IMG/VR virus record: IMGVR_UViG_3300039098_000071
Span: 5,560 to 69,559 of that record
Strand: one strand, 5' to 3'
Source of the DNA: a virus
DNA: 64,000 bases
This document shows, in pieces, positions 3,107 to 63,800 of this stretch. The stretch's first letter is position 1. Each line of letters opens with the position of its first letter. Position numbers and translations under genes: made by a program. A model generated the notes under the pieces. That model searched no databases. It was not told the origin of the DNA and was given only the letters and a program-made list of their open reading frames with translations.

Positions 3107-3114
3107 GACATACC

Positions 3115-3575: not shown

Positions 3576-3580
3576 GGTGG

Positions 3581-9275: not shown

Positions 9276-9288
9276 TTTAATCACCTCG

Positions 9289-13380: not shown

Positions 13381-13430
13381 CCAGACGTTATTTATTCGTG
13401 CTGGTATAAAAATGATGCGGCGATATGATT

Positions 13431-21841: not shown

Positions 21842-23170
21842 TCATGTCCGATGTGCCCCGCCATGCGCAGACAAGAACCCAGGCGGCAGTCGCACAGGTG
21901 GTTTATTTGCCTCTGAAAACAGCAGATACCGGCAGCAATCCATACCATGGTCGTTCTCTTTCGTCGGTTCCTCTTTTGCGCTTTTGTCCTTCCACAGATA
22001 CCCCTGAAATTCGGTGGTGGTGTGCGTCGGCTTCTTTGCATTGATGAGGTGCTGGTCAACCTCGGTCAATGCATCGGAAAAGAAATACACCCCTGCCTTT
22101 CCTGCCACGTTGAACGTCAGTTTTGAGTACACTTCTTGTATGCCTTCACTGACGTTCTTGATTGCCGCAGTTGTCTCTACTCCGTACTTCTCGAGCGTTG
22201 CGCGCCCTTCTGCGTCGTGGTCTGCATACGTTATATCGATTGTTTCTCCTTCCGACAACCTCGTGATGTCTCGTGCGTGGTCCTCAACCAGTCGGCGAGA
22301 CATGTATATTTCTCGATACATATATGCGGCGTCGTCCGGGTCAAACGCAAACCACTGACACACGAACGGATTGGTGTATCCAAAGTCCACTACCCTAACA
22401 CGCCGCCAGTCGGCAGGTATCTCGAACGACTCAATCACGTGTCTGGTCGGATCGAACACAGGATACACCAGCCCCTCGAATGCGGTCCATTTCCCGAGCA
22501 CGTACCTGTCTCGATACATCCCCTTGAAATCGTCGAGACGATAAATGTAATCTTCCGGGTTAAACGTGTTTTGCAACGCGTTGCTCTCAACAACAGAGGT
22601 AAGGCGGGATCCATCCTTTTTCGATCGCGGCAGGTCCTCGTAAAATCGTTTGTACAGAAAATGCTCTGGATACCCCGGATTGGTAGCCATGAATATCTGC
22701 CGCATCGGAACGTTCGCCTGTCGCAAACGACCAAGCAACATGACATAATCATCCTCGTTGATCTCGACCGCTTCATCAACGGCGATCCATCCCACCTCGA
22801 GTGATCCCCACTTATCCGGGTCGTCCAGTCCGCCGTAGATGATTTCACTGCCGTTTGCAAGCGCAATCAACTGTTCCGATTTGTTATGATTCAGAATCGC
22901 ATCGGGTGGTATGACTGGCTGCCCACCAGTCCCGCGCAGAAGTGTTCGAAGAGTGGTATGCCTGAGGCTCTTCATTGTCTTGCGCACAATCAGCCCGAAG
23001 TTGCCGGGATAGTACACGCTCAGGAAATACGCCTTCTCGCACAGTATCTTTGTCTTCCCTGCACCAAATGCACCGCTGTACAATAGCTCAGGTGTGACGT
23101 CCTCCATGAACTTTCGCTGTCCTGGCAGCAGCTCAAGTTTCTGTTGGTTCGGGGTATTTGCTCTGGTCAA
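21842..23170 (-). CDS. terL: terminase large subunit (PBSX/Terminase_6 type)
   Basis: GAFGAGKT, IAVDEA, ATNPG, VDFGYTNP and DHGMDCCRY motifs. Confidence 0.95.
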   Translation of the reverse strand: MTRANTPNQQKLELLPGQRKFMEDVTPELLYSGAFGAGKTKILCEKAYFLSVYYPGNFGLIVRKTMKSLRHTTLRTLLRGTGGQPVIPPDAILNHNKSEQLIALANGSEIIYGGLDDPDKWGSLEVGWIAVDEAVEINEDDYVMLLGRLRQANVPMRQIFMATNPGYPEHFLYKRFYEDLPRSKKDGSRLTSVVESNALQNTFNPEDYIYRLDDFKGMYRDRYVLGKWTAFEGLVYPVFDPTRHVIESFEIPADWRRVRVVDFGYTNPFVCQWFAFDPDDAAYMYREIYMSRRLVEDHARDITRLSEGETIDITYADHDAEGRATLEKYGVETTAAIKNVSEGIQEVYSKLTFNVAGKAGVYFFSDALTEVDQHLINAKKPTHTTTEFQGYLWKDKSAKEEPTKENDHGMDCCRYLLFSEANKPPVRLPPGFLSAHGGAHRT

Positions 23171-36998: not shown

Positions 36999-37139
36999 TT
37001 AGTCCACCTTCGGTTTCTGTACAGCGCTAATAACGAAAGTGATCCTCGATCCCTCCACTATCCCGAGCACTTCACGATCGATGATTGGGATAACGATCCT
37101 TCCAGCCCTGTCTACGGTTGCATAGATGTCTCTGCTCAT
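36999..37139 (-). CDS. AbrB/MazE/SpoVT family protein
   Basis: TVDRAGRIVIP..DRE.LGI.EGS.I.F. Confidence 0.85.
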   Translation of the reverse strand: MSRDIYATVDRAGRIVIPIIDREVLGIVEGSRITFVISAVQKPKVD

Positions 37140-37797
37140 ATTCCATCCTCCGGAACCGATACGTGCCAGATGCCGGATAACGTGCTCCACATCTGGTATT
37201 TCTTTTCGATGAAATTACATGCTTCTTCCGGGGTTACATCCCGATTACACACCCCATCATTATGTATCAATGTGTTGGGGAACGTGTCGTCATTGATTTT
37301 GACGATTGCGCACTTATCGCCGATTTTGAACAATTTCCCGCAGACCGGGCATTTCTTACCCCATTCGATTGCAGTGGCAACATCCTCCGTATACATAATA
37401 GCAGACATCTTAACCGATCTTGTGTCGATCATGATTTGTCGTCCTCCACATCGCGCTTCTTCTGCTCATCGATGAGTCTGTACACTCTCAATATGATGTC
37501 CACATCGATCTCGTTCCATGTCATCATGTTAAGCATGCTGACCCGATGATAATGTTTCATCGTGTCGTTTGGCGTCAGTGCGTCAAGCGTCGTCGGCGTT
37601 GCGACCGGCGTCGGTCCTTCGAGGAATTCGTCTCTCATGTTTTTGATCTCCTGCGCATTTGCGCAAGTGTGTAATGGTTCGCAATGGTTATAAATGTTTC
37701 GATCTACCATCTGAAACCAGAAAAAGAAATTCTAATTCCCGCGAATTCGAGGGAATTAAAAAATGGGGGTGGCAGGTTATGCCCGCTTCACACATCA

Positions 37798-37953
37798 TCA
37801 ACCAACCAACAACCACTGCCAGTATCGAATACCGACGATCACAGCAGCAACATTCACAGCGAGCCATCCGAGCCACATCATTATTTTCAACATATTCCTA
37901 CCTATAGTACCGTGAATAATAATGTTTTCGGCGTATTTATATGCTATATTCAT
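37798..37953 (-). CDS. 51-aa single-TM protein, last gene of the VirB4 operon (not in ORF track)
   Basis: GGAGG RBS; MNIAYKYAE...MMWLGWLAVNVAAVIVGIRYWQWLLVG. Confidence 0.55.
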   Translation of the reverse strand: MNIAYKYAENIIIHGTIGRNMLKIMMWLGWLAVNVAAVIVGIRYWQWLLVG

Positions 37954-37968
37954 CTGGTTTCCTCCGTT

Positions 37969-40335
37969 CTAAATGAGTTTTAATTGCCGTTCGCAATTGT
38001 CAACGATGGTTTGTTCCACTTTGCCGCTTGTCACTGTTCGTAGGTGCAAATCAGCATATTCTTTCAAATTCGCTGACGATGTCACAAACCACCATTTATC
38101 AATTCGAGCAGACAGATCTAACCGTTCGGTCTTGTCCATGACGTCTGATCGATTATTCTTTCCCGTTTCGTACTCAAAACCAATTACGTAGCTATTAGGC
38201 AGCTCCATCATAACGTCACAATCCATGCCGTTGTCATTGATCGTGGTCTTCAGTCCCTTCAACTTGCCGATCTCAGCGATTAAATGCGTCATGATGAAAT
38301 GCTCGGGTGATTGATTACTCGGAAGATTCCTGATCATGAAGTCGGCAGTTCCACGCCCAATAATCTTCGAGCCATTGACCCGAGTATACGCTCCACCAAC
38401 GAGCTGTGGATCCGTCAGGTGCTCGATCTGCGAGTGTGTCAGATCCCGGCATCGATGAATGTCTTTCGACATATCCATAGGAGCCGACGCGTCCACGTTC
38501 ACACCATTTGCAGATGCTTCGATGAGTTTCTTTTCGATCTGCGCGGGAGGTGTCTTAAATTTCATCGCGTTCTTTCCCGAGATTAGGTATCCTTCACCAC
38601 GTTCGAGTCCCGGTAGGTCTGCCGCTTGCGCCATAGTAAGTCCCATCATCGATCCTAACTGCTTCGAGTATGCCGTGGCGATGCGCATAACGATCGTTAG
38701 AGCGACGTTGTTGATGATCGCTTCGTCAACACCGCTCTTCATCACATCGGCGAGGTCCTGTGTGACCAAGATCAATCCCATCTTCTTGAATCTGCACGTT
38801 TTGATGATGTTATGCACGTGGATCGAGTTGGATGCAAGGATCGCCCATGCCTCGTCTATCACAACACTTCGGAAGCCTCGGTCAGATTCAGACATGTACT
38901 CATACAGTGAACTCATGAGCATGTACATTACCGCATTCTGCACGTCAGCCGGAACATTTGATATGTCATAATTGATCAATTTGCCATCGAATTTTATCGA
39001 AGTCTGCCCGTTGAAAAACGACTCGTACGTTCCACCGTCGGCAAAACGCTTGACCTTTGATGCCAGTGCCATGGCAGCAACACGATCAGACTGAATGATA
39101 TCGAATTCCGTTTTGATGCGTCCGTTAATGTATGACGCCAAAACCTCATAAAACTCTCCGATCGTCGGCATTTCTTTGTTCCAAGTACTCCGATCATTTG
39201 TAATCCCTTTAGTCTCATAGAGAACGTTTATGCAAGTATCGAGAATTGACTTGCCTGCGTCCGTAACTCCGCCCGTAAGCATCTCGAAAAATGCTGGCAA
39301 ACTCTGTTTCCTTACTGATAGCGAAGACCGCCCGAGGTCAAACGGATTCATCGTGGTAGGCGATCCTTCCTGTATGATAATGTTCTCTCCATTGAACTCA
39401 GCAACCAATCCGGAGTACTCGCCCTTCGGATCGATGATGATAACATCTTTCCCAGTTTCCAAGTCACGCATGATAAACAACGAGATCATGAATGACTTAC
39501 CAGAACCAGACGATGCAAACACCGCCATATTATAATTCATCATCGATGAATCGAACCTGTTTATGTGAATCGGCATGCCAGATGCATGCTCCCAGATCAC
39601 AGTCTCCGCCGTTGGATTCGTGTCAATCCGTGCCCTACCAGGGAGTGCTATCGTCATGGCTGCGCTGGTCGTGTCCATGTGTCTGGCAGTCTCCAGATCA
39701 TCGATGCCTACAGGCATCATCGACATGTGTCCTCTTGTGTTTCGGTATACCATCCGTTCCGGCTTGATCATTATTCCTTGCAGCGCCGACCACAACGACG
39801 CCACATTTGTCTCGAGCACTCGCTCATCATCTGCATGCACACTAAAATATGTAGCAAAGTCAAACATGCGCTCCTCACCGCGCTGGATCGATGCAAGTCG
39901 TTTCGTCAACGAGCCGAGCTGCGAAGCCTCCGATAAGGACAGTTCCTTCTTTTCAATGCGAGCGAGTTCCTGGCTGGTCTTCAATTTATCGATCGATTTC
40001 TCGATCTTCTTCATCGCGACGTCATTGTCGATAGGCGAGATGTGCTGTGAGAAGTCTACCCTCCCTGATGCATCGTTAATCAGGTGATACATCCAGTTTG
40101 GTTTCATCGTTCCGGGAATCCCCACCATGGCAAGGATCGAATGCTTCTCATCACCGATCTGAATATGATCGGGCTCATCGACCACCACGGTTGGCGTGAT
40201 CAATCGTTTCAGCATCGAAGCATCCCCGGTCACGTCCATGTCGATGTTCGTTGGCACGCTCGGGGTACGCAACTTGCGCACGATAACAGAGTTTCCTTTC
40301 AGGAAATACCGTTTTAAAGACGTTAGTTTATTCAT
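37969..40335 (-). CDS. virB4: VirB4-like ATPase with C-terminal PD-(D/E)XK-like domain
   Basis: NMAVFASSGSGKS, IIIDPKGEY, NPFDL, VVIDEAW and LVTQ motifs; N-terminal GEERMF region typical of VirB4; C-terminal H...DCDV...GFEYETG. Confidence 0.85.
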   Translation of the reverse strand: MNKLTSLKRYFLKGNSVIVRKLRTPSVPTNIDMDVTGDASMLKRLITPTVVVDEPDHIQIGDEKHSILAMVGIPGTMKPNWMYHLINDASGRVDFSQHISPIDNDVAMKKIEKSIDKLKTSQELARIEKKELSLSEASQLGSLTKRLASIQRGEERMFDFATYFSVHADDERVLETNVASLWSALQGIMIKPERMVYRNTRGHMSMMPVGIDDLETARHMDTTSAAMTIALPGRARIDTNPTAETVIWEHASGMPIHINRFDSSMMNYNMAVFASSGSGKSFMISLFIMRDLETGKDVIIIDPKGEYSGLVAEFNGENIIIQEGSPTTMNPFDLGRSSLSVRKQSLPAFFEMLTGGVTDAGKSILDTCINVLYETKGITNDRSTWNKEMPTIGEFYEVLASYINGRIKTEFDIIQSDRVAAMALASKVKRFADGGTYESFFNGQTSIKFDGKLINYDISNVPADVQNAVMYMLMSSLYEYMSESDRGFRSVVIDEAWAILASNSIHVHNIIKTCRFKKMGLILVTQDLADVMKSGVDEAIINNVALTIVMRIATAYSKQLGSMMGLTMAQAADLPGLERGEGYLISGKNAMKFKTPPAQIEKKLIEASANGVNVDASAPMDMSKDIHRCRDLTHSQIEHLTDPQLVGGAYTRVNGSKIIGRGTADFMIRNLPSNQSPEHFIMTHLIAEIGKLKGLKTTINDNGMDCDVMMELPNSYVIGFEYETGKNNRSDVMDKTERLDLSARIDKWWFVTSSANLKEYADLHLRTVTSGKVEQTIVDNCERQLKLI

Positions 40336-41179
40336 TCTTAACCTCCACTGCATCCGATAGATAATCGATTCCTTTCCTTCCTATTCCTGTCGTAACCATC
40401 ATGAGCATCGTTGCCAGGTCTGACTTTTGGAGACGTTCGGAAATCACGCCTGATCTCATCAGGTTTTTCGTGATCACGGCTGCATGGTCGCCGATGACTT
40501 TCACCGCGTCGTGTGTCTGTGCATCTATAGACAGAATCATGAAATACATTGGTTCCTGCACATTCTCATCTTCACAACGCTTCTTATAATCGTTTAGATG
40601 TGCAACCAAGTATTTCTGATGCTTCTCCGGCATGGCTCGTGCGTTATGTAGCATTGCATCGATGTAATCGGATGTGTTGTATGCAAACGTGTATCTTACG
40701 ATCTGGATCTTACACGGCAGGGCATTCAAAAAGTGCTTGTCCATGTCAATTCTCGTATCCACATCGGCATCGTTGACACGATCAGAGTTCAGTGCAGTCA
40801 TCGATAACGCAACGCACACATTCCCTTCTTTGTTGAGATACCAGCCATCAGCGATGCTGACAGTGCCGGATAGGTCTTTCGCTATCCGATTATGCCGATC
40901 GGCGACGTAAGGAGTGATCGCCCACCTTGCCATCCGGTATGCTTTGATGTCCAACTTTCCGAAGACGATTACTGCAATGAGCGGCACGTAAATTATGATC
41001 GGTATCCGGAACACCATCGACTCCCACGTGAACCCCATACTTACGATCAATTCATACCATTTTATCACGGCAATCGCTGAAATAAGCAATATCAGTCCGT
41101 GCCTCGTTGTTAATCCGAACCACGGTTTTGGCTCGAATTCCAAATCTTCTGGTACATCGTACCCCTGTTTTATATCCAT
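40328..41179 (-). CDS. PrgI/VirB3-like membrane protein with cytoplasmic domain
   Basis: Y.VP.DL..E.K..FGLT.RH plus two TM helices, directly upstream of VirB4. Confidence 0.7.
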   Translation of the reverse strand: MDIKQGYDVPEDLEFEPKPWFGLTTRHGLILLISAIAVIKWYELIVSMGFTWESMVFRIPIIIYVPLIAVIVFGKLDIKAYRMARWAITPYVADRHNRIAKDLSGTVSIADGWYLNKEGNVCVALSMTALNSDRVNDADVDTRIDMDKHFLNALPCKIQIVRYTFAYNTSDYIDAMLHNARAMPEKHQKYLVAHLNDYKKRCEDENVQEPMYFMILSIDAQTHDAVKVIGDHAAVITKNLMRSGVISERLQKSDLATMLMMVTTGIGRKGIDYLSDAVEVKNE

Positions 41180-41181
41180 TA

Positions 41182-42048
41182 TTACACTCCTTTGGCAGCT
41201 ATGTATGTGATCTTCTGAATTGCTGGCGTTGGGTTCCAAATCACGTAGAAAAATACCATGATCGGCGTGAATAATGCGATCAACATCACCGCAAGCCCGG
41301 CAATGTCCCCACCCCACCCAGCGACCGGGGTCGAGCTATGTGTGATACATGCTGCACCGATCCGCCAGATCGTCGCTATTGCAAACCCTAAAAATATGTT
41401 GATTGTGATTATCAAGAGCAGAAACACGCCGTGCCTCGCTGTCTTCTCAAACGTCCACAGCAACCAGGCATACACCCACACAATACACGAGATGTAGATC
41501 AAGTGGAACCGGACCAAATAGAATATCCCTTCTGCAAAGATTCCGATCGTATAAGCAATCACCATGACTGCACCAAAAGGTGATGTGACACCTGCCGCCA
41601 TCAGGTCTCGAGCCACATGCACAGGCGCTACGATAAATGACATTTCCTGATTGATCAGCAACAACAACATGATTAGGGACAGCCCCTGCGCAATCATGAA
41701 AGTAGATATGATTGATCGTTTCAACAGATTAATCATGCCAGCCTCGTTATCTCCGAAGTCCGCCCCAAACTGCTTCAGGACATACCCAATGAGAGTGGCA
41801 AGCAATAATATCTTGAAAAGATCGAATGCTATCCACGAGTGTTCAGCGTACATCTGTGTTAACCAGCCTTGACTCATAACGTCAGGCGATACGACTGCCA
41901 CGCTTTCGATGAAGTCTATTGCCGAGCCACCCTCGACCGTTGCCTGCATCGTCTGATTCGTTGCGTTCAGATCGGCTCCAGTAAATCCGACCGATTTCTG
42001 CGCAATCGATGTGAATTCTTGATCCAGATCAACTAAATTGTAAAACAT
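41182..42048 (-). CDS. VirB6-like polytopic membrane protein
   Basis: About six hydrophobic helices; FYLVR...IY...IVW..AW..W.F pattern; operon context. Confidence 0.6.
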   Translation of the reverse strand: MFYNLVDLDQEFTSIAQKSVGFTGADLNATNQTMQATVEGGSAIDFIESVAVVSPDVMSQGWLTQMYAEHSWIAFDLFKILLLATLIGYVLKQFGADFGDNEAGMINLLKRSIISTFMIAQGLSLIMLLLLINQEMSFIVAPVHVARDLMAAGVTSPFGAVMVIAYTIGIFAEGIFYLVRFHLIYISCIVWVYAWLLWTFEKTARHGVFLLLIITINIFLGFAIATIWRIGAACITHSSTPVAGWGGDIAGLAVMLIALFTPIMVFFYVIWNPTPAIQKITYIAAKGV

Positions 42049-43053
42049 TTATTTAAGCAACCCCATTACAAGGAAATATAAAACAATACAGATCACGAGA
42101 ATGTTGAAAAACTCCACTGGTGTCTCCCTCGGATCTGCCTCTTCTTCTTCGGCATGCACAATGACCACGTCGGCATCGATTGCATCAAAAGGGGTATGCA
42201 ATTTCACCGACACATCGGTGATTGGTTCACGTGACGCAAACAGGTTTCTGCCGCATGGTGCCAGTCCATTACTGTCTTCGTACACATGCTTGCGCAGTTC
42301 CATCCATTCAAACCCGTCGGAGGTGTTTCGCAACAGATGGTAGGCGTGTTTCATGTATTCCCCGGCGTTCGTTGCGATACTGATTCCCGTCACATTTGCC
42401 GGTATACTTACCTCCAACAAATACACTCTGCCAGAACAATTAGTGATCGTCGCATGCACAACATGATCGGGCACCACCCATTTCATGAACGACATCCGAT
42501 CAGATAAACGAGTCGTTGCACTTTGCTGATTGTCCTTACACTCGCACTTAACCGTCACGTCATTCGTAACCACGCACGCATTACCGTGCACAGAAACCGA
42601 TTGTTGATTGGTTACTTCGTATGTGATCCAGTGTTTCGTCCTAAATCCTTTGTACCCACAGTATCCCGTCGTGTAATACACTTCTGTCGGGTCATCGGTG
42701 TATACCACACCATTCTCATCGATGAGGGTATGCTTAAACCCATGGATGCAAACATATCCCCACGAAACATCATCAGCGCGCCCACCGACATCAACAAACC
42801 GGGTGCTGCTCAGGAGTCCCCAAGTGGCAGGATCCCACATAACAGCCTGGTTCAGGTCACCACGGTGGAAACGATAGAAATATGAACGTAGAGATTTATC
42901 TGGGGAATTTGATATCCCACTCCAGTCGCCACAGTCGCTCACGTTTTCGTCGATTGCATGCAGGGCATCGGTGTATCCGGCAACTGCGACCGACGATGTC
43001 ATGAGCATCATCACAATCACAACGATTTGATGGATGATACGATCCATAGACAT
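42049..43053 (-). CDS. secreted, C-terminally membrane-anchored protein of the transfer operon
   Basis: Signal peptide (..SSVAVA), beta-rich body, C-terminal TM helix. Confidence 0.65.
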   Translation of the reverse strand: MSMDRIIHQIVVIVMMLMTSSVAVAGYTDALHAIDENVSDCGDWSGISNSPDKSLRSYFYRFHRGDLNQAVMWDPATWGLLSSTRFVDVGGRADDVSWGYVCIHGFKHTLIDENGVVYTDDPTEVYYTTGYCGYKGFRTKHWITYEVTNQQSVSVHGNACVVTNDVTVKCECKDNQQSATTRLSDRMSFMKWVVPDHVVHATITNCSGRVYLLEVSIPANVTGISIATNAGEYMKHAYHLLRNTSDGFEWMELRKHVYEDSNGLAPCGRNLFASREPITDVSVKLHTPFDAIDADVVIVHAEEEEADPRETPVEFFNILVICIVLYFLVMGLLK

Positions 43054-43331
43054 AGATACAATGCCGCCACGGCTTTCATGACGTCAATTACTTTCTTTTG
43101 TCCGTTCGCACTCAGTGCAGACCCACCGACCGCTATGCATATAACGCCGACCAACAGCCCGATCGGGACGACGTACCAAAACACGTCTGATAATAGGTCA
43201 ACCACCCACTCAAGCATGTCGTCGGCAGATTTACCCGTCTCATCGAGCGGATTCTTTGCAGCCGCCACTGTACTCACACACAGCAACAGCAAGAACACAG
43301 AGAGTGTGGTGTGTTTGTTTATGTTCATCAT
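43017..43331 (-). CDS. VirB2/TrbC-like pilin
   Basis: 104 aa: signal peptide (..TVAAA) and two hydrophobic helices separated by a GQKK loop. Confidence 0.55.
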   Translation of the reverse strand: MMNINKHTTLSVFLLLLCVSTVAAAKNPLDETGKSADDMLEWVVDLLSDVFWYVVPIGLLVGVICIAVGGSALSANGQKKVIDVMKAVAALYLCLWIVSSIKSL

Positions 43332-43513
43332 TCCCCCATATCAAGTCCAGCAATCATAACAAGCAATGTAACCGGAAGACCGGCATACCTCTCTGGTGAT
43401 ATCTTCAAATCTTCGAGCAGAGCCTTCAATCCCACTCTGCCGTCATTCTGCACGCGTGTCGTAACGAATCTCCACGCATCTGTTCCCTGGTCAATCTGTA
43501 TATTACAATTCAT
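43328..43513 (-). CDS. AbrB-like small regulator heading the transfer operon
   Basis: TTRVQNDGRVGL...YAG..VTLLV; TTTTTTATA box about 25 nt upstream. Confidence 0.55.
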   Translation of the reverse strand: MNCNIQIDQGTDAWRFVTTRVQNDGRVGLKALLEDLKISPERYAGLPVTLLVMIAGLDMGE

Positions 43514-43599
43514 GTATGTCTGCATTTGTCGCCCATAGTATAAAAAAGTATCGCCACGGCTCATGGCAACAACACACGACACATACAGACACATTGCGC

Positions 43600-44040
43600 C
43601 TAATGCATCAACCAGCGGATTGGCGTCTTTGTGAAGAGATGGTCCTCGATGAGGTGGAGTAAGTACCCAACAAAGAACCCGAGCGTGGCAACCCCCGCCA
43701 CGTCCTGCGTGGTGAACAGCCACGTAAAATGATAAACTACGATCATCGACCAACAAAGCCCATACAGCGAGTGCATGACACCTCTGTGCCCCTTGCCAAA
43801 AATCATCGCGAGTGGAGCATAGCCGAAAAGCCAGTACAATCTCCAGAAGCCAAAGAAGTGCCATGACTTGATGATAGCACGCCTTGAGTCGATGTCTGGA
43901 GCAATTGATCCGACAGAACAGAAAAAAATAAACAACGCACAGGACATCACTGTGAATATTGATGGCTGACGCATAAACAATGCCGCCGCTATCAATACGC
44001 CAATCGAAGACGATATCAACAGATGTGATGTCCCGTGCAT
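43600..44040 (-). CDS. membrane-bound metal-dependent hydrolase (YdjM-like)
   Basis: SH...GSIAPDID...HRGVMHSL...GYLLHLIED. Confidence 0.85.
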   Translation of the reverse strand: MHGTSHLLISSSIGVLIAAALFMRQPSIFTVMSCALFIFFCSVGSIAPDIDSRRAIIKSWHFFGFWRLYWLFGYAPLAMIFGKGHRGVMHSLYGLCWSMIVVYHFTWLFTTQDVAGVATLGFFVGYLLHLIEDHLFTKTPIRWLMH

Positions 44041-52262: not shown

Positions 52263-52293
52263 CCCCGCCCGGATAAGCGGGGCATTCTTTTTT
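52263..52293 (+). terminator. hairpin plus T-tract between convergent genes
   Basis: CCCCGC-CCGGATAA-GCGGGG followed by CATTCTTTTTT. Confidence 0.7.
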
Positions 52294-53690
52294 CAGTTCA
52301 GCCAGATCAATCGGTCCACATTTCCATCTGATACAACAAGCGAAACCAGATCATCGATGTTGATGACTTCCGTGGTGCCCATGCGATTCAGCGTGAGCGT
52401 GAGTCCATCGTCTGGCACATCCCGATACACCGCAAACTCGGACAACGAAGTGTATATCCGTGGTCCATGCATGTCTATGATCTTGAAGTACTGCCCCATC
52501 GCGACACATGGAAGCTTAACAAGCTCTCCGGATTCGGTGATGGTTGCATCGTCTACGACTGTGGTCCAGTCATGCCCGTCCGTAGACACCTGTACGTCGA
52601 ACGTCATCGGGACGTCGAGTTTGAACATGGCTACTCTGATCGCTGAGGATTGTACCACATCACCCATATCAAATGTTAAGGTGGGGTCGAGGTCATCGAT
52701 CTTTGAAAACCAATGCGTCTCTACGTCGCCGTCTATGGTGTTCTCAACTGGATACTTTGTGCGATATACAGTCGATGCCACGACCGAGTCAGGCGTGACC
52801 CATTCGCTTGGGGTATCGCCATGATCAACGATTCCCGTAACGGCATACGCATAATTATACTTCTCGATCACGCCGTACCTGACCCTTGCGTATCCATTCT
52901 CGCCCCAGTTCTCGCCCCAACAATTCTTGATGAACCAACAGCCATCTGAATCGTTCCAACCGACCACAACAACGGCGTGGTTCGCCCAACCGAGATTGCC
53001 AACAAACGCTGGTTCATATACTCCGGATCGATAATAATACCAGTCTTCCGGAACAGAGATCACGACCGAGATCGGACCATGTTCTTGGATTGCATACTTA
53101 AATGAGTCCGTGGTCGGCGCAACATAAACACACTCTTCTATCTGCCACGCGATACTCTCCCAGTTTTCGCACGTCTCGCAGTCTCTCGTATTCTTTGCAA
53201 TGTATGGATAGCATGCCTCATTCGGGATCCCGATGTCTCGCGCATACTTCAGTACTTCATCCGGCCATCCACCGCCACACGATCCAGTGTTTGTACATGA
53301 TATCAGATGTTGTTCCGAAAGGTCAACGGTTTTGCCCGTCTCGATGAGTATCTTCGACTCGATCGCGCCGGTTGCACCGAATGCCCAGCAACTCCCGCAT
53401 GATCCTTGGTGTTTCACCGGAGTCGTCCCGTTGTTTTCTCTCCAGTCAAACGCTGGTGGATACATCGGCATTGGTGGCGCGTATATAACACGATCATCTT
53501 CATCAGGGACCGATGCAACAGCACCACCGAGTGCAGCCTTTTCATTGTCGCACAATCCCGACACTGACGTCGTGCCGCTCTCCCATACCGGGGCTTCTCC
53601 TGCGATTGCAGTGAGCGCCCGGGTTTCATCTGTTGCTGCTGCGTTCGCGCAAAACAGCAACAGAAGTATCAGTATTATGAATTGCTTCAT
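52293..53690 (-). CDS. secreted papain-like (C1A) cysteine peptidase with discoidin/F5-8 type C domain
   Basis: Signal peptide; FDWR, QGSCGSCWAF, LSEQHL, NHAV, KNCWG..WGENGY; IDGD..T.W...VSTDG.DW. Confidence 0.9.
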   Translation of the reverse strand: MKQFIILILLLLFCANAAATDETRALTAIAGEAPVWESGTTSVSGLCDNEKAALGGAVASVPDEDDRVIYAPPMPMYPPAFDWRENNGTTPVKHQGSCGSCWAFGATGAIESKILIETGKTVDLSEQHLISCTNTGSCGGGWPDEVLKYARDIGIPNEACYPYIAKNTRDCETCENWESIAWQIEECVYVAPTTDSFKYAIQEHGPISVVISVPEDWYYYRSGVYEPAFVGNLGWANHAVVVVGWNDSDGCWFIKNCWGENWGENGYARVRYGVIEKYNYAYAVTGIVDHGDTPSEWVTPDSVVASTVYRTKYPVENTIDGDVETHWFSKIDDLDPTLTFDMGDVVQSSAIRVAMFKLDVPMTFDVQVSTDGHDWTTVVDDATITESGELVKLPCVAMGQYFKIIDMHGPRIYTSLSEFAVYRDVPDDGLTLTLNRMGTTEVINIDDLVSLVVSDGNVDRLIWLN

Positions 53691-53768
53691 GCGCAGTATC
53701 TACGACTGCGCGGTATAAAAACGGTTTGTTAAAATGAACTTGTTTATACTTTGCTGGCAATGTGTTAT

Positions 53769-54392
53769 CTACGTGGGGTCCACACATCGATTAATTGTTA
53801 GCACAACGTCGAGTATGTCGATCACATCATCATAATTCATGTCCGCACGGTCACCATCGATTGATACGTTGTCTGGATCGGAGACATGATTCAGTAGCTG
53901 GATTGCATCGCGCACATCAACTATTCGATCTCTGTTTACATCGCCCATGAGCGGAGTGATCGTGACCGATCCGTGGATATAATCACTGTGCATCAGGATA
54001 TCATACTCATCTCTTAAGATTGTGTTCATTACGTGTAACAGCGTTGTTTCACCGCACTCGCCGATTGCCGTAATTCGAACACTGCCAAAAAATCGATCGC
54101 CTGTCAATGTCATGTCATCAGAACCCGTGTACATCCCAACAAATCCACCACTGTCTTTGATTGCTGTCACCACAAACCCATAATCGCCGCATTCCCCGGC
54201 AGTCATCTCGATAACAGAATCGTTATATTGAATGCATACATGTCCATGATGAAACGTCGTGTCTGTTACATGTATTTCAACAAGCGTAGTACACCCTTCT
54301 TGCAATTCTATATCATCTATTGATATCGTGTTTTCTGCTGCTGCGCTCGACGCAAAAAGCAGCAATACCAAAAATGTTATGATGTGTTTCAT
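53769..54392 (-). CDS. secreted cohesin plus dockerin protein
   Basis: Signal peptide; IQYNDSVIE...VRITAIG..G cohesin-like part; GDVNRDRIVDVRDA and ADMNYDDVIDILDV duplicated Ca-binding loops. Confidence 0.8.
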   Translation of the reverse strand: MKHIITFLVLLLFASSAAAENTISIDDIELQEGCTTLVEIHVTDTTFHHGHVCIQYNDSVIEMTAGECGDYGFVVTAIKDSGGFVGMYTGSDDMTLTGDRFFGSVRITAIGECGETTLLHVMNTILRDEYDILMHSDYIHGSVTITPLMGDVNRDRIVDVRDAIQLLNHVSDPDNVSIDGDRADMNYDDVIDILDVVLTINRCVDPT

Positions 54393-54438
54393 GGTATTAA
54401 AATTAAAAGGTGGCGCCAATTGCGGCGCCAATTGTATT

Positions 54439-55365
54439 CTACTCACCCGTGTTCCCGGTAGCAATGTTCAAGATGTGTATTGCATCGCGAACATTTAACA
54501 CTCCATCTGCCACGACATCAGCGACATCAAGATTTATCGCTGTGTTGTCTGGATCAACAATGTACGTGATCACCATCAGGGCATCAAGAGAATCTACCGT
54601 GCCGTCGCCGTTCACATCACCCATGACAATTACTGCCACCGGAATCGTTATCTGTGTGGTGGCGCCATCGTCATCTGTAACAGTCGCTACAATGTCGTAA
54701 GTACCCGGCAGAACATTTGCTGGCATCTGGAACTCGTATTCATAACGGTCACCTGATACATAGTTATATTCCACGATTCCGAGACCTATCGGAGTTAAAT
54801 CAAACGTGACGATTGCAATCGTACCGTCGGGGTCCGAAGCAGTGACACCGATTCTGCCACTTCCACCCGGTGCAAAGTCCGTGGCGTGAATATCTGTTAT
54901 CACAGGATCCAAATTATCAGATATGATCTCGACAGACCCAGCATTGACAGCCGATACAATTTCGATTGCATTTGGGTCGCTCAAACATATCGCGTCCATC
55001 GACAACGGCGACACATCACCAATGCTCCCGACGGCAGTCACCTGCAAAGTACACATTGTTAGATCGCCAGTCTTGCCACCACCAAGTGACAGTATAACGA
55101 TTCGGACAGACGTTGCAGATGCTTCTAGATTATACTTTGTCCAATCAAGATCACCATTGAGAACACCGGTAATCTCAATCACAGTTGGATCATACGTAAT
55201 GTCTACCTGCCCGGCGGCAACATCCGTGGCGTTGCAGACCACAACCGGGATGCCCGCCGATGCACCAGGACATAGTTGTACGTCATCTATTGTCATGACG
55301 TTGTCCTCTGCGGCGACAGCAGTCGCGCACAAGAGGAGTACCAATATAGCTACAATTGATTTCAT
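54439..55365 (-). CDS. secreted cohesin + Ig-like + dockerin protein
   Basis: ITYDPTVIEI...LQVTAVG..G..SPL; ASDPDG...ATVTDDDG; GDVNGDGTVDSLDA and ADVVADGVLNVRDA. Confidence 0.85.
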   Translation of the reverse strand: MKSIVAILVLLLCATAVAAEDNVMTIDDVQLCPGASAGIPVVVCNATDVAAGQVDITYDPTVIEITGVLNGDLDWTKYNLEASATSVRIVILSLGGGKTGDLTMCTLQVTAVGSIGDVSPLSMDAICLSDPNAIEIVSAVNAGSVEIISDNLDPVITDIHATDFAPGGSGRIGVTASDPDGTIAIVTFDLTPIGLGIVEYNYVSGDRYEYEFQMPANVLPGTYDIVATVTDDDGATTQITIPVAVIVMGDVNGDGTVDSLDALMVITYIVDPDNTAINLDVADVVADGVLNVRDAIHILNIATGNTGE

Positions 55366-55442
55366 CAGTCATGTCTGCGATTGGGTACTATAAAAAAGTT
55401 ATTCAAATTACCAAATGCAGAACCGGGTTTGGCATTTTGCTA

Positions 55443-58300: not shown

Positions 58301-60867
58301 ACTTCCTCCATTTCAAGTTGATTGTATATGAATTTAACGCCTACGTTCATCGAACTGCTCTGGATCTTCATGACTTTGTTTATTGCTATCCCCGGTTCGC
58401 TGATTGTAAGCAGCACGTTGTCTCCCGCCTTGAGATCGTCACCCAGAACGGTGAGGCTTGCGGTCTGCTTGGAGTATGTCATCAGCATTTCGCCTGCCAG
58501 GATCTCTGCCACTTGCGGGTCTTCAATCTTGTCGTCACGGTGGACGTCTGTGTATATCCCGTATTGTTCTTGTGACGTGTCGTCGTTCGACATGACCGAC
58601 ACACGCGCCGGATACCGCGTGCTATAATCAAGCACCGTGCCCCCACTGTCCACACCCACATTAATGCCTGCCGATGTGGGGCTTAACACGAGGTAATAAT
58701 TAACACCCGGTGTAAGAGTGACCTGATTATCGAATCGGAATTCTGTGTAACCACCATCAATAATCGATGTGTTTTTCACAGTAAGCTGTCCATTTGATAG
58801 ATTTATTCCATCTGCACTTCCCCCGGATTCCCCCTGTATTGATAGATCGAGATCCGGTGTGCCACTTACCAATTTCGTATATATAAGAACACTACCAAGA
58901 TAATCCTCCGTCGGAACAAACAATTGTGTTCTCGGCGGCGTGGCGGCGAGGGCGACTGTGTGGTCATAGCCGCTGCCGTGTTTGTCTTCGACTTGGTGAT
59001 AGCCACCGATCACAATCGCACGATTCACAACTGCACCAATATCCGAGATCGTGGGTGCTCCGTCCAAGTCGCCGTCTACAATCGTTGCTGTGGTTGCCAC
59101 ACCAGCAGGATCGAAGAAATGCAGCTTCGAATCTGGATCAACGTACCAATCATACCCCACCAGATCTGCCAGTTCCTTGATCGCTGCGCTCAATGATTTC
59201 CACACGTACGACGCCTCATCTATGCTATACGATGTGCTTTCGATATATGCGTTGCTTGCGTCGATCCCTGCCAGTTCACGATAAGAATCACCGGTTGTGA
59301 AATCAATCGTGTCGATGGCGGCGATGAGTAATGCACTTACTTCTTGATCATAGAATCTCCCAGAAAAGAAGATGTGATTTAGTCGAACACCACCATCTTC
59401 GCCAACCACATCCATAAGTGGCAATGACCCTGTCCCGTCCATGGTTTTCGACACGTCGGAAACGTACCCCGACAGCTTCAAGTCATTGACTCCGTCCATG
59501 CCAATTAAGACCTCCACCACACAACCACGCGTAAGCCACGCATAGCGGTCTGCCGTATTGAGTAACGAAATCGAAAACGTGTCGGTGGAATCCGTAAGCT
59601 CAGTGCCGACGTCAAGAGCAATCATATCAGATATGGTATGTCCCGTTCCGTCCAGATCAGTGAAACACACCCGCCCCGACGGGGTATCTTCCATTGTTCC
59701 GGGCGGATGGTTGTACAACCACGTGATTTCTGATTTGATGAGTGCTCGATCATATACACGTAACTCGTCGACCTGACCCGATAGATACTCTCCCCATCGA
59801 CTATTTGCACCAATCCACATGTCGTCACCGATCGGATTAATCACAAACGACGCGGTCGTGGAGCCAATTGATACTGTGTCTAAGAACAGTTCCATGTCGG
59901 ACCCGTCATATCGTGCAACGACGTGGTGCCACACCCCAGCAGATAACCCACCTGTCGATGTGATGTTTGAATATCCACCGTCGTGATATAATATAAACCA
60001 CAGCTTGGTGTCTTCGGCGGACAAATATATGGCAGATGTCGCATCATTTGTTCCCACTTTTGCACATATCGACTGCCAGCCAGAAACCGAATCCAATTTT
60101 ATCCATGCTGAGATGCTGATCGCTGTGAGGATATTCAAACTACTACTATGTGTACAGAGTACATATTCATCCGAGCCGTTAAAGTCCAGCGCATCGCCCG
60201 ACTTTCCAGAAACCCAATTTGAATCATTCATGTTCTGCAAGGCGCCGGTGTTGCCTTTGCCGGAGTCGTCCCGTGCAGACGTACCTGAACCATCATTGAA
60301 CGGTAGGTAAAGCATGAGACCATCGTCTAAGGTGACTTCGTAATCTATTTCTATCTTTGCACTTGATGTGGGAGCGGAGTCATACGCGGTGATTCCAATG
60401 ATATCCACGTCCCCGCCGGTCGTGTCAATTGTCACCGACATGGCATTCGAGTATTGCCACCCACTTCGGTGAACAATCTCTTGGACGATTGTGGTGATGT
60501 CGATTGATGCCCATGCGCCAACACGCAGGTTTGTCCAGTCTGCCGCGTTTGCTGGTATTGCCGCGTCTGTTAGTGGTCGTTGAGATGGTATGTTACTCGA
60601 TGACCATGTAGCTGGATCATCTTCGGCAACACCACGTATAACTGCTTGGAGACTACCAGACACCTCTGTCGGGTATATCAATAATTTTGCAGAACGGATC
60701 GCCGCATTGTGTGGGATGTGCAACGATTGCCACCGCAGCCCAGTTGAATATCGAAATGATAAAGCGTGCCCCACATACACAGACGAACTGGTTGTGTTTA
60801 CCGATGTGTAATTGGATTCACGACAGTCATCCGTACCGAGCACAATCTGTTTTGTGATTAATGTCAT
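58297..60867 (-). CDS. tail hub/Tal-like protein with inserted LamG domain
   Basis: LamG (YLPFNDGSG...WHHVVARYDG...VDELRVYDRAL) followed by hub motifs (AIKELADLVGYDWYVD...LHFF, VNRAIVIG). Confidence 0.75.
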   Translation of the reverse strand: MTLITKQIVLGTDDCRESNYTSVNTTSSSVYVGHALSFRYSTGLRWQSLHIPHNAAIRSAKLLIYPTEVSGSLQAVIRGVAEDDPATWSSSNIPSQRPLTDAAIPANAADWTNLRVGAWASIDITTIVQEIVHRSGWQYSNAMSVTIDTTGGDVDIIGITAYDSAPTSSAKIEIDYEVTLDDGLMLYLPFNDGSGTSARDDSGKGNTGALQNMNDSNWVSGKSGDALDFNGSDEYVLCTHSSSLNILTAISISAWIKLDSVSGWQSICAKVGTNDATSAIYLSAEDTKLWFILYHDGGYSNITSTGGLSAGVWHHVVARYDGSDMELFLDTVSIGSTTASFVINPIGDDMWIGANSRWGEYLSGQVDELRVYDRALIKSEITWLYNHPPGTMEDTPSGRVCFTDLDGTGHTISDMIALDVGTELTDSTDTFSISLLNTADRYAWLTRGCVVEVLIGMDGVNDLKLSGYVSDVSKTMDGTGSLPLMDVVGEDGGVRLNHIFFSGRFYDQEVSALLIAAIDTIDFTTGDSYRELAGIDASNAYIESTSYSIDEASYVWKSLSAAIKELADLVGYDWYVDPDSKLHFFDPAGVATTATIVDGDLDGAPTISDIGAVVNRAIVIGGYHQVEDKHGSGYDHTVALAATPPRTQLFVPTEDYLGSVLIYTKLVSGTPDLDLSIQGESGGSADGINLSNGQLTVKNTSIIDGGYTEFRFDNQVTLTPGVNYYLVLSPTSAGINVGVDSGGTVLDYSTRYPARVSVMSNDDTSQEQYGIYTDVHRDDKIEDPQVAEILAGEMLMTYSKQTASLTVLGDDLKAGDNVLLTISEPGIAINKVMKIQSSSMNVGVKFIYNQLEMEEV

Positions 60868-63800
60868 ATCAACATCCTGAGTGACCGGGTGATCTTGCGA
60901 TCGTGTTCATCAAGCAGTCGGTTCAAATCGTCCACGCCATACACATTACCAATGTTGTAATGATTGTTAATAGTTACCCCGCGTGGCCCGTTGATGAAAT
61001 CGTCCACAGATCGTTTCGGGACCACGAATTCTCCAGCGTGCACTTTCGCATACATGTCACGAGGAATGAATCCACCTGATGCAAACTCTTCTACAACCGA
61101 TTTTAGATCATTCGATACAAGTCCTTTGGTCGACTCCCGAAGCGCATCTTGTTCTGCTGATGTTAATTGATCCCATGCATATTCTGTAAACCACAGCCCC
61201 TGTCCCGACGCCCCGGTCAAAAGATCCAAACGGGTATCTGTTGTGCCACCTTCCCACTTCTTGTCTTGAGTAGGGTTCCATCCGCGCGCACTAGCCCCAC
61301 TTTCATCGGCCCCACTGCTTTCTATAATAATCCCCTCCACATCTACCCACTCATCAGAGCGATTATATTCTCCATTGTCATCTCTCTCAGATATGCGGCC
61401 GGCTTCTCTTTCTTGTTCCGCTATCTTTGCATTCATATCATCGATCGAACGCCCCACCGATGCGACAGATGATTGTGCTGATGCAGCCCAGGTATCGATC
61501 ACACCGCCTGCATCGGCTGTCCACAACTTTGTAGATGTAACTGCTGATGCCCCGCCCGACGTAACGGCTTCGACAACGCCACCCATACCAGCACTCATTT
61601 TTGATATCCAGCTCGTGCCACCTGCCCCGATTGCCAATGCAACATTTCCGCACCACGTGCCTGTATTTGCCACGGCGGTAGCACCGCCAGTCGTAACTGC
61701 TGCTGATACAGTACCCATTCCGGAGGTCGTCTCGGACCCCCAACCCGGAACAAGGGATTTAATCTTTGCAGTTATGTTGCCGCACCAAGTGGATGTATTT
61801 GCTGTCGATGTTTCACCGCCAGTCGTAACCGCCGCTGCTACAGTATCCATTCCAGATGTCGTTTCGGTTCCCCAACTCGGGACAAGTGCTTTGATTGCTG
61901 CAGTTGCGTTACCACACCACGTGGTCGTGTTTGCTGTCGATGTTTCACCGCCAGTCACAACAGCAGCAGCAACACTGTTCATCCCATCAGTGACTGGCGC
62001 AACCCAGCTCCCGGCACCGGTCTCGATCGCAGATGTTGAATTGTCGCACCACGTGGTATTATTTGTAGTTACCTCTGCACCGCCTAATGTGACTGCAGAA
62101 GCTATTTGTGCTATGATATCAGTAACCGGCGCAAGCCATCCACCTGCAGCAGTTGATATGGCTTCTTTGACAGCGTCACATAATTCTGTCGCTGCGGTAA
62201 TCACTGCCCCGCCGGCTGAGGTAATTGCTTCACCGATGGCATTAATTGCATCTGTAACTTCAGGTGGCCAATTGCCAACTGCGGTCGATATAGCTTCTTT
62301 TATATTGTCACACAATTCTGTTGCGGCAGTAACCACTGCCCCACCGGCAGAAGCAATTGCTTCGCCTATGGCGTTGATTGCTTCCGTAATCTTTTCTGGC
62401 CAATCACCTGCAGCAGTTGATATGGCTTCTGAGATACTACTACATAATTCAGTTGCAGCAGTGATAACGGGTTCACTACCAGATGTAATCGCTTCTCCAA
62501 GTTTGCCAACTGCTTCCGTAATCTTCTCCGGCCAATCACCTGCAGCAGCAGTGATTATAGGACCGACTTTTGCCAGCAGTTCTGAAGCACCTGCCACAAG
62601 CGCATCCCATGCACCTACCCAATCACCCTGTAGAATCGCCATGCCCAACATTATAGCAGTTTTTATGCTGGTCAATTGTATATCAACTACTAATGCAATA
62701 GCATCAAATGCCATTGATACGGACTCGCCCCACTTACCACCAACACTTTCACCAATAGCATCGCCGATCGCGCCGATCGCCTCGACAATGGATGGTCCCC
62801 ATTTTGTGATGTAATCAACAATCGTTGTTCCGATTGCTGTTACGCCTTCCACCAAAGCCTCCCATGCACCTGCCCAATCGCTTTGTACCAATGCCATGCC
62901 CACATTAATTGCCGTTTGCACTGCTGTTAATGCGATACCAACTGCAGCAGCCACTCCGTCCCATATTGCTGCCGCCGCTTCTGATATTCCTGGACCATAC
63001 TCAGCCCACATCGCCGACATGTCGCCTAAAAACCCCGACACTACTCCGGTTATAGCAGCGACCGCAGTCGCAGTTTTCTCTTGTATCCCGAACCAATTTT
63101 CATCCCATGCAATCGCAAACAATGCAACCGCCACGATAAGCGCAGCGAGCGGTATATTTATGGCAGCGAGTGCCGCAGCAATACCACCCGTCACAATCGC
63201 TATGATTCCTCCAGATGCAATGATTGCTGTGGCAAGTCCGGAAACCGCTGCTACGATCGCGGCATACGTGGCGGCAACGGTTGCAATTAGTCCCAGTGCA
63301 GAGTAGATAGCAACCAAAGCAGCAGCGAACTTCGTTAGTGTTGGATGATCTGCGAAATACTTTAATATGTCTGCTACGATACCTGTAAGCGTGTTAAGAG
63401 CAGTTGCAGCAGTGTTTGCCGCAATACCGATGGCCCCTAAAATAACTGCCAGTGCAACATCGGTAACATCATATTTCGTTAATGCCGCCCAAATATCGTT
63501 GATCAGTTCAGCGACATGACCAGCAATCTCGATGATACTAACAAACGATGATACTACGGCAGTCGCTGTTGGCGCAAGCTTCGTAGTTACCGCATCAACG
63601 AAATTCGATATAGCATCCGACATTGTGGAGAAGTCGCCGGTAACAGCATCACGAAAGCCCGCCGCATTTGTATCCCATGCTACCTTCAATCCCAACGAAG
63701 CAATGTTGATTTCCGCGAGTTTCCCGATGAATGTGCCCACTGCAACCTTCGCGATAAGCAATGCGCCGCTGTCTATCTCTGGTAATACCAACGTGGGGAT

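Follow-up and report, generated by a model that had tools for sequence, protein, structure and literature searches.

This study analyzed a 64,000-nucleotide stretch of viral DNA (the window), which comprises bases 5560-69559 of the 69,559-bp IMG/VR virus record IMGVR_UViG_3300039098_000071, and focused on an operon of seven open reading frames (ORFs) whose products resemble parts of type IV secretion systems (T4SSs). The operon lies on the minus strand, which holds nearly all long ORFs of the window, and its seven ORFs are located between positions 43546 and 37798, with successive overlaps or gaps of at most 15 nt (Table 1). In the order of transcription, they encode a small protein (ORF1), a candidate pilin, a secreted protein with a membrane anchor, a polytopic protein that is likely VirB6-like, a PrgI/VirB3-like protein, a VirB4-type ATPase, and a short peptide with one hydrophobic helix. 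The operon is positioned in the middle of the record with small virus-typical ORFs on both sides; the gene for the large terminase subunit (TerL) lies on one side, and the genes for a D5 helicase and YopX lie on the other. An earlier note, made from the sequence alone, had described a TATA box heading a tightly coupled minus-strand operon of this kind among small viral ORFs. The coordinates, the overlaps, the motif statistics, and the inspection of both flanks confirmed this description.

The first gene of the operon is preceded by a TATA-box-like element (TTTTTATAC). A TATA box with a leaderless start is the archaeal promoter layout. The motif TTTTTATAS occurred five times in the window against an expectation of 0.49, a count reached in 0 of 100 shuffles, and four of the five matches belonged to the minus strand and preceded the start codons at 13380, 43513, 53690, and 55365 by 22-24 nt. 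This promoter type is common to the T4SS-like operon, a structural-region gene, a papain-like protease gene, and a cohesin-dockerin gene. The 16-nt promoter stretch of the operon had no second copy in the window; the 9-nt TATA core alone recurs.

Table 1. Features of the T4SS-like operon and viral hallmark genes in the window.
Feature	Positions	Strand	Remarks
TATA-box-like element TTTTTATAC	43538-43546	minus	24 nt before the ATG at 43513; leaderless layout
TTTTTATA(C/G)	13404-13412, 43538-43546, 53713-53721, 55388-55396	minus	22-24 nt before the starts of four operons
ORF1, 61 amino acids (aa)	43328-43513	minus	overlaps the pilin gene by 4 nt
VirB2/TrbC-like pilin candidate, 104 aa	43017-43331	minus	overlaps the secreted-protein gene by 37 nt
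Secreted protein with C-terminal membrane anchor, 334 aa	42049-43053	minus	abuts the polytopic-protein gene
Polytopic protein, likely VirB6-like, 288 aa	41182-42048	minus	2-nt gap to the PrgI-like gene
PrgI/VirB3-like and TraC-like protein, 283 aa	40328-41179	minus	26-nt overlap with the ATPase gene, 8 nt from the second Met
VirB4-like ATPase, 794 aa	37969-40353	minus	15-nt gap to the peptide gene
VirB4-type ATPase part, residues 1-614	38512-40353	minus	Walker A GSGKS; Walker B DEAW
Predicted winged helix and PD-(D/E)xK (restriction-endonuclease) fold, C-terminal 180 residues of the ATPase	37969-38511	minus	
Peptide with one hydrophobic helix, 51 aa	37798-37953	minus	similar 53-aa peptide after VirB4 in the relative L003
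C-run and T-run, terminator-like operon end	37750-37780	minus	3' of the last gene; read from the sequence
TerL	21842-23170		Terminase_3 7e-21; phrog_2 3.6e-40
Major head protein	8430-9284		phrog_1650 and phrog_544 matches
Tape measure	60864 to window end		phrog_305 and others

The ATPase of the operon matched the Pfam families P-loop_TraG (3e-24), DUF87 (4e-12), and AAA_10 (2e-9). In the NCBIfam collection, it matched the CD1110-type VirB4 model (NF045971, 1.9e-58) and the VirB4 model of mycoplasma integrative and conjugative elements (ICEs; NF045975, 2.8e-57), and more weakly TraC (1.4e-37) and VirB4_CagE (2.8e-25). The match to CedB (NF041017) reached 1.3e-8 and 33.9 bits against a cut-off of 700, and that to HerA (NF040937) reached 4.8e-4. 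All of the NCBIfam scores were below the equivalog cut-offs, so the protein does not belong to those exact families. When the profile of the 15-member ATPase family was compared with the PDB, it recovered VirB4 of Thermoanaerobacter (4ag5) at 8.4e-42 and TrwK at 1.3e-6, and HerA structures at 2e-6 (8wiv) and 7.7e-5 (4d2i). Residues G283, G285, K286, and E501 were invariant in the 15 sequences. These findings strongly suggest, at the sequence level, that the operon ATPase is a VirB4, as the earlier note had proposed; the grouping with HerA or FtsK that the note had raised as the alternative was not observed, since the match to the VirB4 structure far exceeded those to HerA. The terminase large subunit, which is the PHROGs label of the nearest phage family of the ATPase (phrog_2666), was rejected as an identity because a real TerL is present and the evidence for VirB4 is stronger.

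Beyond its own cluster, the ATPase has 16 close relatives with 33-82% identity, 15 of which cover at least 92% of the query; identity then falls to approximately 26%, which is also the level of the nearest named homologues outside the close family, the VirB4 proteins of Patescibacteria. In the plasmid collection PLSDB, 1094 of the 1403 records with a homologue of the ATPase were predicted to be conjugative. Among 50,697 deposited phage records, 44 matched the VirB4 query, with identities of 25.6% or less among the 25 matches listed; these 25 were mostly unannotated metagenome fragments and also included two Streptococcus phages (TrsE-like) and Bacillus phage G gp155. One relative (L006, 1243-3688) carries its VirB4-like gene in two ORFs (573 and 262 aa), which reflects a frameshift or a sequencing error; the gene is whole in its close relative L004.

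The C-terminal domain of the ATPase, which is kept in every full-length relative in the alignment, was modeled with AlphaFold2 (predicted local distance difference test [pLDDT] 84; predicted template modeling score [pTM] 0.80). In the model, a winged helix precedes an alpha-beta-beta-beta-alpha-beta core. Foldseek matched the domain to YaeQ, VC1899, AF1548, Hjc, HindIII, and FokI (E 2e-3 to 2e-2), and VIA-align yielded Z scores of 8.6 for Hjc ST1444, 8.6 for Cdn1, 8.5 for VC1899, and 8.3 for Bax1; the best match (Z 8.6) had a root-mean-square deviation (rmsd) of 3.4 Å with 97 residues aligned. The matches from both programs were nearly all PD-(D/E)xK nucleases, including VC1899/Can2, NucS, and McrC, and the list was coherent. 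Six residues of the domain were invariant (H685, D707, D713, E727, E729, and K741), of which D713, E727, and E729 are on the second and third strands and K741 is in the next helix. The model and these residues make it possible that the predicted nuclease-fold domain is catalytic.

Searching 1.84 billion representatives with a profile of this domain gave 256 matches at E<=0.001. The best 150 included 34 VirB4 fusions, namely P0002, P0012, and 32 of the 148 others identified by a local hmmsearch; 15 of these 32 had at least 700 aa. The remaining 116 of the best 150 carried the domain without a VirB4 part and were mostly shorter proteins. A group of 39 among these 116 (within the P0163-P0297 list) had 380-520 aa and no Walker A motif, and forms a family without a name. 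In BLAST comparisons, no PLSDB plasmid (1403 matching records) and no deposited phage covered at least 80% of the ATPase; the VirB4-nuclease fusion is therefore absent from the PLSDB and phage collections at BLAST sensitivity.

We then considered the membrane and surface partners of the ATPase. The Pfam model PrgI (PF12666) matched seven of nine orthologues of the PrgI-like protein, with a best E value of 2.1e-8, and the PrgI/VirB3-like assignment of the earlier note was thereby borne out; the start of this gene was set at the Met that gives the length of the orthologues. Residues 32-260 of the protein matched positions 25-272 of NF045975 (4.6e-5), and the ATPase matched positions 294-893 of the same model. 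Because both proteins jointly cover this model, the pair looks like a split VirB3-VirB4 in its sequence. A protein atlas placed the 283-aa protein in TraC-like PF26593 clusters (feature score 0.91; structure TM 0.59/0.70). Its description as a two-helix PrgI/VirB3 membrane part fused to a TraC-like domain of the VirB4 N-terminal type is a good one.

The 288-aa polytopic protein matched no sequence family in Pfam or when its alignment profile was compared with PDB sequences. The best five PDB matches of its AlphaFold2 model in Foldseek were all TrwI/VirB6 of R388 (E 0.04-0.5; probability 0.96-1.0). VIA-align superposed the model on TrwI/VirB6 with Z scores of 12.9, 12.1, and 11.9 (rmsd 4.2-4.5 Å over 222-224 residues), values to be read with the program's warning that helical bundles can reach a Z of about 13 by chance; the next unrelated entry had a Z of 9.9, and DotA had 9.3. 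The modeled fold suggests that the protein is likely VirB6-like. The earlier note had described a protein with about six transmembrane helices, and its polytopic nature stood and gained a fold match, but neither a sequence family nor a confident model accompanied it.

The pilin candidate consists of a signal peptide and two hydrophobic helices, a layout present in all seven orthologues, and the Pfam models TrbC and T4SS_pilin each matched two of the seven. In hhalign, its profile aligned with the two helices at the N terminus of the VirB6-like family (probability 73.6; E 2.9e-5), a score that may be inflated by common membrane-helix composition. These similarities weakly suggest that the 104-aa protein is a VirB2-like pilin; the note's claim to this effect held for the layout and for some of the orthologues, but the protein's own score remained under the Pfam cut-off. 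Comparing the alignment profiles of the pilin, VirB6-like, and PrgI-like proteins with PDB sequences returned only insignificant or spurious matches (G8P 0.36, TrwI 5.2, G protein-coupled receptors, and HP0242).

The 334-aa protein has the signal peptide and the C-terminal anchor that had been claimed for it and is conserved in the cassette, with orthologues in six other loci and 21 invariant columns. It had no family in Pfam and no usable match in the protein atlas (atlas model pLDDT 0.35). The peptide at the end of the operon has the single hydrophobic helix attributed to it. Counterparts of ORF1 occupy the same position in the relatives L003 and L002 with 14-22% identity. ORF1 had been labeled an AbrB-like regulator, a label that gained no support: no match to this protein of only 61 aa was found in Pfam (E<=1), in NCBIfam (E<=0.1), or in a PDB profile search (E<=10). 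The stronger candidate for an AbrB fold is an ORF of 63 aa downstream of the operon (36999-37190), although its match to the MazE/AbrB fold is weak and does not reach the cut-off (PF04014, E 5.2e-4).

Relatives of the cassette were collected by alignment scans, which yielded 14 metagenome loci and one IMG/VR locus; a single-sequence scan of viral contigs found no relative, and the alignment scans found one other IMG/VR contig. The surroundings of L003, L004, L005, and L013 were viewed within 10 kb on either side of the locus. The order pilin, secreted protein, VirB6-like protein, PrgI-like protein, and VirB4 was kept in all five loci with at least 4 kb upstream of VirB4 (L002-L005 and L013), across which the protein identities were 17-50%; partial copies were located at the contig ends of L006, L008, and L011. 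For close pairs (dS 0.7-1.1), the dN/dS ratios were 0.117 for the pilin, 0.066 for the secreted protein, 0.05-0.06 for the VirB6-like protein, 0.03 for the PrgI-like protein, and 0.046 for VirB4. The cassette genes are under purifying selection. In L003, a 100.5-kb contig, TerL (phrog_2 1.7e-21) is located about 4 kb downstream of the module, and homologues of the PrimPol and the methylase of the window are also present. In L002, TerL-like and portal (phrog_9232 2.8e-24) genes are located upstream, 3.4-5.6 kb from the module; L002 also has a homologue (70% identical) of the window ORF at 7018-7620, and L005 carries phrog_1499, a C5 methylase, and an ERCC4-like gene. The linkage of the operon to TerL in other contigs, a check that the note had suggested, was thus found in L003 and, with a TerL-like gene and a portal gene, in L002. 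The gene after VirB4 in L013, L002, L007, and L012 encodes a lipoprotein-like protein of about 125 aa, not the peptide of about 51 aa found in the window and in L003.

The carrier of the cassette was identified as a tailed virus (Caudoviricetes) on the basis of TerL, the major head protein, and the tape measure (Table 1). Baseplate-like and LamG tail proteins are among the other viral genes of the record, and its replication and DNA genes encode an MCM-like protein, a PrimPol, a D5-type helicase, an ERCC4-HhH nuclease, a DNA methylase, and YopX. The note had listed terminase, portal, capsid, and tape measure genes of a tailed archaeal virus; Pfam and PHROGs supported the terminase, capsid, and tape measure, but no portal was recognised in the window with Pfam, PHROGs, and further searches of the window proteins. 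The nearest TerL proteins among deposited viruses, at 38-40% identity (E about 1e-86), are those of haloarchaeal tailed viruses. This TerL affinity supports an archaeal host, as do the promoter type, the MCM gene, and the ERCC4-HhH gene. A salt-in haloarchaeal host, as suggested by TerL, is unlikely: the cytoplasmic proteins of the window are not strongly acidic (median isoelectric point [pI] 5.4). A DPANN host was considered on the basis of one ERCC4 homologue named Candidatus Diapherotrites (42% identity), and a Methanosarcinales host on the basis of a disaggregatase-repeat protein in L013; neither fixes the host. This protein is one of two beta-helix proteins beside the L013 cassette (1951-3792 and 580-1815), one of which carries the disaggregatase-related repeat (PF06848, 5.2e-44). 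The repeat is a domain known from Methanosarcina and may hint at the host of the L013 relative. The sequencing runs containing the DNA of the record, all four from one study, are labeled marine sediment metagenome.

IMG/VR classes the record as linear. At its low end (1-1833 of the record, outside the window), a tape-measure-like ORF is truncated by the contig end after its N-terminal 611 codons, and its high end (60864-64000 of the window) contains the C-terminal 1,044 codons of a tape-measure-like gene in the same orientation; a repeat at the two termini was not detected. The ends probably represent an assembly break inside one repetitive tape-measure gene of a circular or permuted genome, and the genome may therefore be nearer complete than the CheckV estimate.

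We next considered which genes of conjugation and of stable maintenance are absent from the whole 69,559-bp record, which was searched with Pfam models at E<=0.1. No match was obtained with the relaxase models PF03432 (Relaxase), PF08751 (TrwC), and PF01076 (Mob_Pre); with T4SS-DNA_transf (VirD4, PF02534), the one coupling-protein family searched; or with the integrase and resolvase models Phage_integrase and Resolvase. Weak TrwB and CD1115 matches fell on the Walker A motif of VirB4 itself. The statement in the note that no relaxase, VirD4 coupling protein, or integrase was recognised thus extends, for the models tried, from the window to the record. The coupling protein and the relaxase that characterize a self-transmissible conjugative element were accordingly not found. 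In 185,579 species-representative genomes, pattern-limited scans with two pattern sets found no copy of the cassette, which leaves its absence from them unproven. The lack of an integrase and of copies in species genomes fits a non-integrating element for which contact transfer could pay.

Taken together, the findings demonstrate that the cassette belongs to the virus, is of T4SS ancestry, is selected, and carries a DNA-type domain on its motor. The interpretation of the note was supported in part: a module of VirB2, VirB6, VirB3, and VirB4 type without a recognisable relaxase, coupling protein, or integrase is located in a tailed archaeal virus, but the AbrB label and the portal gained no support. 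None of the refuting results named in the note turned up, and the partners of the ATPase have T4SS families or folds among their matches. We propose that the cassette was derived from monoderm-type (MPF_FATA-like) T4SS/conjugation machinery and is owned by the virus for contact-dependent export of its genome; for this explanation as a whole, we estimate a probability of roughly 0.5. In the infected archaeal cell, the PrgI/VirB3-TraC-like protein would anchor a hexameric VirB4 motor to the membrane, and the VirB6-like protein would form the channel. The pilin with its signal peptide would be polymerised into a short pilus or conduit, and the secreted anchored protein would be exposed on the outside of the cell, maybe as an adhesin or as part of a stalk. 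The winged-helix and nuclease-fold domain would bind and cut DNA at the channel entrance, and the viral genome could thereby be exported to neighbouring cells by contact, a second, particle-free route of spread. We infer the assembly, the substrate, the direction, and the nuclease activity in this scheme. That the cassette is a selected, working machine of the T4SS type is highly probable. That the machine moves DNA is somewhat better than an even bet, and that it exports the virus's own genome is a tentative proposal that falls short of even odds. Export is favoured because the cytoplasmic DNA-cutting domain of the motor sits where the relaxase and the coupling protein of donors act and because self-transfer benefits the virus directly.

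Several results weigh against this proposal. The TrbC match of the pilin candidate (E 5.2e-4; 20.6 bits against a cut-off of 27.9) and the PrgI match of the 283-aa protein (E 1.2e-5; 25.7-26.2 bits against a cut-off of 27) are both below the Pfam cut-offs. The model underlying the VirB6-like assignment is of low confidence (pLDDT 59; pTM 0.47), and its fold similarity is within what helical bundles can attain by chance. The nuclease-fold match is middling at Z 8.6, and E729 occupies the place of the usual Lys in the (D/E)xK motif, which makes activity uncertain. A relaxase or coupling protein could be hidden among the many ORFans, and the CheckV completeness estimate of the record is 54%. The Pfam partition models ParB_N and CbiA had no match in the record at the threshold given above, and stable plasmid-like carriage is therefore unsupported. 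Finally, the T4SS-type DNA systems of known function that lack both a relaxase and a coupling protein, ComB and Ced, import DNA.

One alternative is that the cassette is a DNA import system of the Ced, Ted, or ComB kind, which would make the host take up DNA from neighbours or lysed kin; the motor-linked nuclease would then cut the incoming DNA and provide nucleotides or recombination substrates for viral replication. As far as the available portion of the report on Ced and Ted (PMC9905601) describes them, their part list equals that of the viral cassette, with a pilin, a VirB6-like protein, a VirB4-like protein, and neither relaxase nor coupling protein. The absence of matches to the last two in the record is consistent with this comparison, and a putative small glycyl-radical (NrdD-like) gene, with a related one in L003, may hint at nucleotide supply. 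However, the ATPase matches conjugative monoderm VirB4 (1.9e-58) much better than CedB (1.3e-8), no competence-type DNA-binding or recombination-mediator gene was recognised beside the operon, and the viral gain would be less direct than that of self-transfer. We therefore regard import as unlikely.

Equally unlikely is a role unrelated to DNA, in which a pilus or adhesin, or protein secretion, would alter the host surface, so that cells might aggregate or attach to partner cells, competing viruses might be kept out, or an episymbiotic host might benefit. Patescibacteria, whose VirB4 proteins are the nearest named homologues of the ATPase outside its family, have the same four components, mostly without a relaxase, and the accessible part of the report describing them proposes a non-conjugative role (PMC12102498). 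The conserved secreted anchored protein has no T4SS counterpart, and the virus encodes other surface proteins, namely the cohesin-dockerin proteins and the papain-like protease. Against a surface role stand the winged-helix and nuclease-fold domain, a conserved DNA-type domain that all full-length members carry on the motor, and the lack of a recognisable effector-like or toxin-like gene among the operon genes.

The residence of the cassette in the viral genome was assessed with sequencing runs and composition. Run X1, possibly the source sample, contained a 5,895-nt contig (33034-38928) and a 1,211-nt contig (42611-43821) that matched the record without differences, and the depth was flat at about 12 across the operon ends and flanks. 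Both operon ends were thus bridged by independent contigs at even depth, which answers the concern in the note about a chimeric assembly. A second sample of the same study contained 82% of the sampled words, at 4-10x on the operon and its flanks, and the contigs listed from runs X2 and X3 contained parts of the operon and both flanks, with the operon ends unbridged in the rows listed. The guanine-cytosine content of the operon (0.48) is within the range of the window (0.43-0.52). The note had also raised an inserted ICE; no att-like direct repeats bracket the operon, and neither an integrase nor a relaxase was found with the Pfam models searched. In X2 and X3, the stretch 37409-38009 at the 3' end of the operon had a depth of about 94-113x compared with 5-9x around it, with loose ends at 37648-37762, and a variant contig showed many substitutions at 37764-37839. 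This short stretch seems to be common to other, more abundant genomes, and the depth spike could mark a recombination (mosaic) junction. That the cassette is a misassembled piece of a plasmid or ICE, or a recent foreign insert without a viral role, is very improbable: a linear record with an estimated completeness of 54% and the variant contigs and spike of about 100x in X2 and X3 would fit it, but it is contradicted by the X1 contigs across both operon ends, the lack of att-like repeats and integrase, the composition and promoter type shared with the rest of the window, the linkage of the module to viral genes in L002 and L003, and the purifying selection.

We compared the cassette proposed here for genome export with known systems. 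It resembles the monoderm MPF_FATA core of Firmicutes, mycoplasma ICEs, and archaeal plasmids in its CD1110-type VirB4 with a PrgI-family protein directly upstream; in contrast to that core, it has no match to a coupling protein, a relaxase, or a cell-wall hydrolase, and it has a VirB2-like pilin candidate, a predicted VirB4-nuclease-fold fusion, and a tailed virus as its carrier. The import systems Ced of Sulfolobales and Ted of Thermoproteales, according to the sections of the source at hand (PMC9905601), likewise use a minimal VirB2-like, VirB6-like, and VirB4-like set without a relaxase or coupling protein. The same sections report a similarity between the pilin and the N-terminal region of the channel protein for both CedA1/CedA and VirB2/VirB6 (Beltran et al., PMC9905601), and the viral pilin candidate aligns in the same manner with the N-terminal part of the VirB6-like protein. 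Ced and Ted are chromosomal host systems, whereas the viral cassette adds the PrgI/VirB3-TraC-like protein and the nuclease-fold fusion, and orthology of its ATPase to CedB/TedB was not supported (33.9 bits with the CedB model, whose cut-off is 700). The T4SS of Patescibacteria has VirB4, PrgI/VirB3, VirB6, and a VirB2-like pilin as its four components, the types also assigned, with varying confidence, in the cassette, and is described as MPF_FATA-derived and mostly without a relaxase; it is bacterial and chromosomal instead of archaeal and viral, and the available part of its description mentions no nuclease-fold fusion (PMC12102498).

Bacterial phage-plasmids and prophages similarly combine a virion module with plasmid-type functions in one element, but the matches listed from the deposited phage records are only distant VirB4 homologues, none covering 80% of the query. 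The viruses with the nearest TerL, HVTV-1, HCTV-1, HCTV-5, and HCTV-16 (38-40% identity), differ in that none of them is among the 25 listed of the 44 phage records matching VirB4. A literature search, which did not extend to supplements that may hold such annotations, found no description of a T4SS in a tailed archaeal virus or of a VirB4-nuclease fusion. Compared with T4SSs, Ced/Ted, and the Patescibacteria systems, the carrier, the apparent split VirB3-VirB4 and predicted VirB4-nuclease-fold architecture, and the extra anchored secreted protein are new.

DNA processing without a relaxase in archaeal conjugation is an open question, as presented in the available parts of two reports (PMC9905601 and PMC6563490), and a VirB4 motor with a fused nuclease-fold domain would be a concrete candidate for this missing step. 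Virions and conjugation have been treated as separate routes of gene transfer, and a selected T4SS-type cassette in tailed archaeal viruses makes the boundary between them testable. A more far-reaching proposal is that of a bimodal virus lineage, which would form particles and also pass its genome directly through its own pilus-bearing T4SS, with the VirB4-nuclease replacing the relaxase and the coupling protein; we consider this proposal doubtful. If true, it would provide the first case of a conjugative virus and indicate that relaxase-free DNA processing may take place in archaeal conjugation. For hosts in dense aggregates or sediments, spread by contact could alter models of viral transmission and host range.

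Other features of the window were also recorded. Directly upstream of the operon promoter, positions 43600-44040 encode a YdjM-family membrane protein (Pfam 5.6e-14). Two cohesin/dockerin proteins and a papain-family protease that contains a discoidin domain are encoded at 52293-55365; all three are very acidic (pI 4.0-4.3). In the large ORF at 9672-11084, a 60-residue stretch (residues 180-239) aligns at 59% identity (E 9e-14) with a hypothetical protein from Thermoanaerobacterium phage THSA-485A, which is the sole phage match of this ORF.

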